Assembly: GCF_003334255.1 (NCBI RefSeq)
Contig: NZ_QOWU01000226.1
Reading direction: 5' to 3' (one strand)
Source: Escherichia coli
GTDB lineage: Bacteria; Pseudomonadota; Gammaproteobacteria; Enterobacterales; Enterobacteriaceae
DNA length: 526 nucleotides
The position numbers and the translations under genes were made by a program. Shown here piece by piece: positions 1-526 of the stretch. The number at the start of each line of letters is the position of its first letter. Position 1 is the stretch's first letter. Under the pieces are notes generated by a model. It saw nothing but the letters and a program-made list of their open reading frames with translations. It ran no database searches and had not been told where the DNA came from.

Positions 1-526
1 ATGCAACAGAAGGTACTGCGTTAGGGGCAAAGGCAACAGTAACAAATAAAAACAGTGTTGCATTAGGTGCTAATTCTGTAACCACTCGTGATAACGAAGT
101 TTATATTGGCTATAAAACCGGAACCGAAAGCGATAAAACATACGGCACCCGTGTTCTTGGTGGCTTAAGCGATGGTACGCGTAACAGTGATGCGGCAACT
201 GTTGGGCAGTTAAACCGGAAAGTTGGTGGAGTTTATGATGATGTTAAAGCCCGTATAACTGTTGAGTCAGAGAAGCAGAAAAAATACACAGACCAGAAGA
301 CCAGCGAGGTTAACGAAAAAGTTGAAGCCCGCACAACGGTTGGTGTTGATTCCGACGGAAAACTTACCCGTGCAGAAGGTGCGACTAAAACTATCGCCGT
401 CAATGACGGTCTCGTTGCTCTGTCTGGCAGAACAGACCGTATTGATTATGCAGTTGGTGCCATTGATGGCCGTGTCACCCGTAACACGCAATCCATTGAG
501 AAAAACAGCAAGGCGATTGCAGCCAA
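1..526 (+). CDS. Internal fragment (5' and 3' partial) of a trimeric autotransporter adhesin-like fibrous surface protein; reading frame 3 (codons 3-5 ... 522-524)
   Basis: Seen in sequence: frame 3 on the + strand is open for all 174 codons; the other two + frames hit stops early (TAG at 22-24 in frame 1, TAA at 47-49 in frame 2). Translation contains [11 protein letters not shown] (YadA-head-like repeat), [22 protein letters not shown] (neck-like, compare the YadA neck pattern R.L..LAAG...TDAVNVAQL), and VTRNTQSI / IEKNSKAI (asparagine-at-d heptads typical of these stalks). The 174 residues contain no Cys, Trp, Met, His, Pro or Phe and are rich in Thr/Gly/Val/Ala/Asn/Lys, as expected for a repetitive fibre. 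8 of 11 Arg codons are CGT. Family assignment rests on motif recognition only. Confidence 0.8.
12..95 (+). other. Two tandem 14-residue YadA-like head repeats ([14 protein letters not shown] / [14 protein letters not shown])
   Basis: Seen in sequence: residues 4-17 and 18-31 of the frame-3 translation align without gaps (xxALGAxxxVTxxN). The pattern resembles the SVAIG-type 14-residue repeat of left-handed beta-roll head domains in YadA-like adhesins. The DNA copies (12-53 and 54-95) are diverged, so this is a protein-level repeat. Confidence 0.6.
141..215 (+). other. Neck-like connector motif ([25 protein letters not shown])
   Basis: Pattern matches the conserved neck of trimeric autotransporters: a basic residue, hydrophobic residues around a Gly, then T/S-D-A-x-x-V-x-Q-L. 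It sits immediately after the head repeats and before a charged helical-looking segment, which is the canonical order. Confidence 0.65.
231..338 (+). other. Charged Lys/Glu-rich post-neck segment with two YxD motifs (YDD at 234-242, YTD at 285-293); putative first stalk coiled-coil segment
   Basis: Seen in sequence: [36 protein letters not shown] is strongly charged and Gly-poor compared with flanking sequence. YxD motifs are known from coiled-coil stalk segments directly after the neck in YadA/Eib-type adhesins. Helical periodicity was not computed. Confidence 0.4.
441..526 (+). other. Start of heptad coiled-coil stalk with two consecutive asparagine-at-d layers ([16 protein letters not shown]); continues beyond the window
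   Basis: Seen in sequence: hydrophobic residues spaced 3-4 apart (I147, V151, I154, V158, I165, I172) with Asn at the intervening core positions N161 and N168, followed by T/S. The [IVL]xxN[TS]xx[IVL] pattern is characteristic of trimeric autotransporter stalks. The register was assigned by eye. Confidence 0.5.

Follow-up and report, generated by a model that had tools for sequence, protein, structure and literature searches.

The 526-bp stretch of DNA analysed here (hereinafter the window) constitutes the entire draft contig QOWU01000226.1 of Escherichia coli (GCA_003334255.1) and has no flanks. Six-frame translation shows that frame +3 is free of stops over nt 3–524 (174 codons), and each of the remaining frames contains 4 to 21 stops. 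The open reading frames in those frames and on the opposite strand are at most 74 aa long and all lie in stop-rich frames, for which reasons genes in alternative frames or on the other strand were dismissed. An Rfam scan of both strands (E≤1) yields no match in the 526 bases. A megablast search of a phage collection identifies the window in two genes, eibC (AF151674.1, positions 1664–2189) and eibD (AF151675.1, positions 1690–2215), in each case with 100% identity over 526/526 bases, and exact substring matching confirms both positions. The two reference records describe the prophages P-EibC and P-EibD of E. coli ECOR-9. The 174-residue translation corresponds to residues 233–406 of EibC (AAF63035.1) and 240–413 of EibD (AAF63040.1), the full-length eibD gene occupying positions 975–2507 of its locus. 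The plus-strand frame at nt 3–524 is, by its openness and by DNA and protein identity, an internal coding fragment of eibC/eibD that includes neither the start nor the stop codon. The translation is also identical, at 174 of 174 positions (E=1.6e-102), to chain residues 103–276 of the PDB entry 2XQH, “immunoglobulin-binding protein EibD”, and its last 33 residues match the EibD portion of the GCN4-fusion structure 2XZR.

The preliminary description, made from the sequence alone, had assigned this fragment to the passenger of a trimeric autotransporter adhesin, had proposed a comparison with characterised adhesins and had stated that the fragment could not reveal which member of the family it represents. 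The first of these proposals is borne out, the DNA being that of eibC/eibD and the protein that of the EibD crystal construct 2XQH, and in the comparison the best matches are indeed trimeric autotransporter adhesins, specifically EibC and EibD, rather than anchorless tail fibres. The statement on family membership has to be narrowed. Judged by identity of DNA and protein, the fragment is exactly EibC or EibD, and it holds only for the choice between these two, which are inseparable because their genes do not differ over 1280 bases from window base 1 onward and diverge directly upstream of it.

The first part of the translated protein is a YadA-like head. A Pfam search detects YadA_head (PF05658), the 14-residue repeat that forms a left-handed parallel beta-roll, at aa 2–25 with E=8.5e-5, and full-length EibD yields five YadA_head matches. 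Two 14-residue repeats occupy nt 12–95, as the preliminary description had it; a third, degenerate repeat, which it left unnamed, follows at nt 87–128. Together with the 14-residue register and the repeat alignment with the YadA head structure 1P9H, these matches delineate the last three beta-roll turns of the head at nt 3–128 (plus strand). The head is joined to the stalk by a neck connector at nt 141–215 (plus strand), where a neck had been proposed: these 25 residues (aa 47–71) align with the neck of 1P9H (RQLTHLAAGTKDTDAVNVAQLKKEI) and represent the neck of 2XQH. Residues L52, G53, L55, T59, D63, A64 and A65 of the neck are unchanged in an alignment of five Eib-family proteins. The Pfam model YadA_stalk (PF05662) matches neither the neck nor the stalk, in the window or in full-length EibD, and because this model is silent, the neck was confirmed through the 1P9H alignment instead. 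The profile search suggested in the preliminary description succeeds for the head, in the window, and for the anchor, in full-length EibD, but not for the stalk.

The neck is followed by a right-handed coiled-coil stalk at nt 231–338 (plus strand), previously noted as a charged segment with YxD motifs. In this segment, 16 of the 36 residues are charged, and the two motifs are YDD (nt 234–242) and YTD (nt 285–293); a low-confidence monomer model predicts a helix at aa 57–108. A direct DNA repeat lies within the right-handed coil, nt 231–264 and 309–342 being 74% identical and 78 nt, i.e., 26 codons, apart. Each copy encodes 12 residues, and the sequence suggests that a stalk unit has been duplicated internally. 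A search of the whole window for DNA repeats identifies no inverted repeats, and the direct repeats are only short and two-copy. Between the right-handed and left-handed coils lies the saddle, a beta-minidomain of 34 residues with approximate borders at nt 339–440 (plus strand), delineated by predicted strands at aa 110–134 and by conservation. It was not named in the preliminary description and is the most conserved block among EibA, EibC, EibD and EibE. In Eib proteins, the saddle is a non-helical insertion that links the right-handed and left-handed coils (PMC7247746; PMC12511318).

The window ends within a left-handed heptad coiled coil (nt 441–526, plus strand), of which it encodes the first heptads. 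As anticipated from the asparagines, the register is VTRNTQS / IEKNSKA / IAA, with V or I in the a positions and N in the d positions; the N-at-d layers at N161 (nt 483–485) and N168 (nt 504–506) are complete, and the third N is truncated by the end of the window (nt 525–526). This part is identical to the respective portions of 2XQH and 2XZR, with a predicted helix at aa 135–173 (pLDDT ~80–88), and in the full gene the coil runs on to the membrane anchor. The stretch from the saddle onward (aa 110–174) is near-invariant across EibA, EibC, EibD, EibE and one RefSeq homologue. The trimeric nature of the coiled-coil stalk is apparent from its identity to the solved trimer 2XQH and from the heptad register with N at d. 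The domain order given in the preliminary description, namely YadA-like head repeats, neck, right-handed coil with YxD motifs and left-handed N-at-d coil, is therefore correct; the published order for 2XQH is a head, then a neck, a right-handed coiled coil, the saddle and a left-handed coiled coil (PMC7247746; PMC12511318). An AlphaFold model of the monomer, from which only the order of the elements was taken, predicts strands at 19–54, a helix at 57–108, strands at 110–134 and a helix at 135–173 with a mean pLDDT of 59 and a pTM of 0.25, poor confidence being expected for an obligate trimer; the predicted order matches the published one.

The regions required for export and anchoring lie outside the window, and its start, signal peptide and anchor are taken over from the identical GenBank genes. 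The preliminary assignment hinged on a C-terminal beta-barrel anchor, and full-length EibD possesses one: residues 453–511 match the YadA-like membrane anchor (PF03895) with E=5.2e-16, and the C-terminus of EibC is identical to that of EibD. The first 27 residues of full-length EibC and EibD look, by eye, like a signal peptide. The best NCBIfam model for full-length EibD is the YadA trimeric autotransporter (E=2e-30, under the YadA-specific cutoff), and all NCBIfam matches, which involve the “exception” models for YadA, BimA, EmaA and Ata, are below cutoff; such scores fit the expectation for a paralogous family distinct from those particular proteins. Every feature tested was found, and the gene is a trimeric autotransporter adhesin of the Eib family. 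It is also a known and well-studied gene with a crystal structure at 2.0 Å, so that the function adds nothing new.

In type Vc secretion, a Sec signal peptide routes the polypeptide into the periplasm, a 12-strand outer-membrane barrel is assembled from four strands of each of three protomers, and the passenger is exported through this barrel and folds as a trimeric fibre that projects off the cell surface. Eib proteins have also been reported to promote serum resistance, autoaggregation and the formation of biofilms. By analogy with what is known of the family, the stalk encoded in the window would be the part of the fibre that binds the Fc portions of IgA and IgG non-immunologically. The sites in EibD, which we take to be located approximately at residues 329–344 for IgA and 384–418 for IgG, would both fall in the window (EibD 240–413). 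Two distinct regions of the EibD stalk bind IgA and IgG (PMC7247746; PMC12511318), and publications cited in PMC7247746, PMC12511318 and PMC3539135 describe non-immune binding of IgG Fc and of IgA by the identical proteins.

The preliminary description had suspected that the gene belongs to accessory DNA, possibly a prophage, and had pointed to the flanking genes as a means to verify this. The contig itself has none, but its relatives bear the conjecture out: the GenBank records are those of the prophages P-EibA, P-EibC, P-EibD and P-EibE, and in complete genomes the homologues are located at prophage ends, the eib genes occupying that end of a lambdoid prophage where the tail-fibre genes lie. 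In the ECOR-9 prophage records, the eib cassette consists of orf-191 (DUF4376), eib, orf-156 and orf-60, followed by eaa, the gene of an S6-peptidase autotransporter. Ahead of the cassette, P-EibA has J, lom and a tail-fibre gene. The close homologues in complete genomes are found in the same setting at the end of a lambdoid prophage, the order being J, Lom, tail fibre, DUF4376, Eib, a hypothetical protein and S6 peptidase. More generally, a cargo cassette of orf-191 (DUF4376), Eib, orf-156, sometimes orf-60, and the 1300-residue S6-peptidase autotransporter Eaa is observed at the right end of lambdoid prophages; in four loci, it spans positions 13140–20628, 7212–14660, 24–7324 (the eibC locus) and 2661–9939.

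Among the complete E. coli genomes in RefSeq, 42 of 5426 produce any megablast match to the window, and the matches cover at least 80% of it in 9. None of the 5426 contains an exact match, the best being 97.3% identical over 91% of the window, and for this reason the exact allele is rare. The homologue in strain SW070917 is 93.5% identical over the full window and that in UCPROB-002 is 97.3% identical over 91%; the respective prophages are inserted at two separate positions in the chromosome, one adjacent to ompW'/trp and the other to yecD/aspS. Two sequenced phages, PhiR5_2 and PhiR12_3, likewise carry an Eib-like gene, under the annotation “hypothetical protein”.

Given this location, the window could in principle derive from a structural protein of the virion, such as a phage tail fibre, that lacks a membrane anchor and resembles trimeric autotransporter adhesins in nothing but its fibrous repeats. 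The position of eib directly 3' of tail-fibre genes in lambdoid prophages would suit such a protein, as would two weak matches of full-length EibD to PHROG families with tail-related labels (phrog_17426, “adhesin”, E=1.6e-10; phrog_26246, “tail protein”, E=3.4e-10). The PHROG families matched most strongly, phrog_10464 and phrog_9547, however, are without an assigned function, the identical protein has been crystallised as a trimeric autotransporter passenger (2XQH), and the full-length genes that contain the identical window combine a YadA_anchor domain with a signal-peptide-like N-terminus. A virion protein is accordingly an extremely improbable source, and the tail-fibre identity was rejected on account of the YadA_anchor in the full-length gene. 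As a separate observation, the PHROG families that hold the Eib proteins (phrog_10464, phrog_9547 and phrog_8062) are labelled “unknown function”.

With the adhesin assignment in place, the extent of the contig calls for an explanation. The contig starts at the very base from which eibC and eibD are identical. From position 450 onward, the window matches eibA exactly, and this match continues beyond the last window base; 450+77−1=526 is the right end of the contig. Because both ends thus coincide with identity boundaries between eib paralogues, the contig is probably a repeat common to at least two eib paralogues that collapsed in a short-read assembly. In a de Bruijn assembler run with k=77, the contig would be the edge leading from the node at which the eibC and eibD paths converge to the one at which eibA joins, a reading that presumes that the source strain has ECOR-9-like eibA, eibC and eibD. 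The contig might instead come from a single eib gene, be it eibC, eibD or a new hybrid allele, and be short owing to poor coverage or to assembly breaks of another kind. Some STEC strains do carry eibC without eibD (PMC4352079), but such a gene would have to begin, by chance, at the onset of eibC/eibD identity (base 1) and to end, again by chance, with the first 77-mer shared with eibA (base 526), and this double coincidence makes a single gene an unlikely source. Within the window, no exact stretch shared with eibE exceeds 53 bases, and the lack of any such stretch of at least 77 bases is consistent with the lack of an internal break. There is also a slight chance, smaller than that of a single gene, that the contig masks an eib arrangement different from that of ECOR-9, for example an extra copy or a new hybrid allele recombined at window base 1. 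Taken together, these observations make it almost certain that the window is an internal piece of eibC/eibD from an E. coli lambdoid prophage, encoding an immunoglobulin-binding trimeric autotransporter adhesin (type Vc), and that the contig most likely represents collapsed paralogues.

These results have implications beyond the identification of the gene. Short orphan contigs such as QOWU01000226.1, which probably represent collapsed multi-copy prophage cargo, render eib copy numbers and allele calls in draft E. coli genomes unreliable. If a hybrid or extra eib copy were indeed hidden in this assembly, it would provide a live case of the shuffling of adhesin-head cassettes onto a fixed immunoglobulin-binding stalk between co-resident prophages. 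The Eib families are still unlabelled in phage resources, being of “unknown function” in PHROG and “hypothetical protein” in recently deposited phage genomes. The domain reading obtained from the sequence alone proved accurate, with minor omissions, namely the third head repeat and the saddle.

Compared with the known members of the family, the window shows no difference from EibD over its 526 bases and 174 residues; the N-terminal half by which EibD differs from EibC lies outside it. Directly upstream of the window, the 5' halves of the eibC and eibD genes are only 62–97% identical in 100-nt windows. The two loci (positions 1–3300 of each) have a mosaic structure: identity is ~98–100% in the upstream region, with orf-191, and likewise in the 3' 1280 bases, which encompass the stalk and the anchor and reach into orf-156. 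In the variable 5' half of the gene, which encodes the N-terminal domain and most of the head, it falls to 62–87% per 100-nt window. On sequence comparison, this mosaic suggests that prophages residing in the same host have recombined or undergone gene conversion, or that a head cassette has been exchanged.

EibA and EibE have in common with the window-encoded protein and its full-length form the saddle, the left-handed N-at-d coil and the anchor, with eibA 84% identical over window nt 317–526 and eibE 94.5% identical over nt 333–458. In EibE, the right-handed segment is shorter and the left-handed coil has one heptad (SIEKNSK) fewer (PMC7568254). In relation to EibA, EibC and EibD, the missing heptad corresponds to aa 164–170 of the window (nt 492–512), so that one N-at-d layer is lost and the register is kept. 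Further members of the Eib family described in the literature are EibF and EibG. A more remote relative is YadA of Yersinia, represented by the head structure 1P9H, which shares the 14-residue head repeats, the neck motif and the family of the C-terminal anchor. This similarity is distant (E=6e-5 to 1P9H), and YadA lacks both the saddle and the N-terminal domain of the Eib proteins. The ligands differ as well, YadA binding collagen, whereas the Eib proteins bind immunoglobulin.
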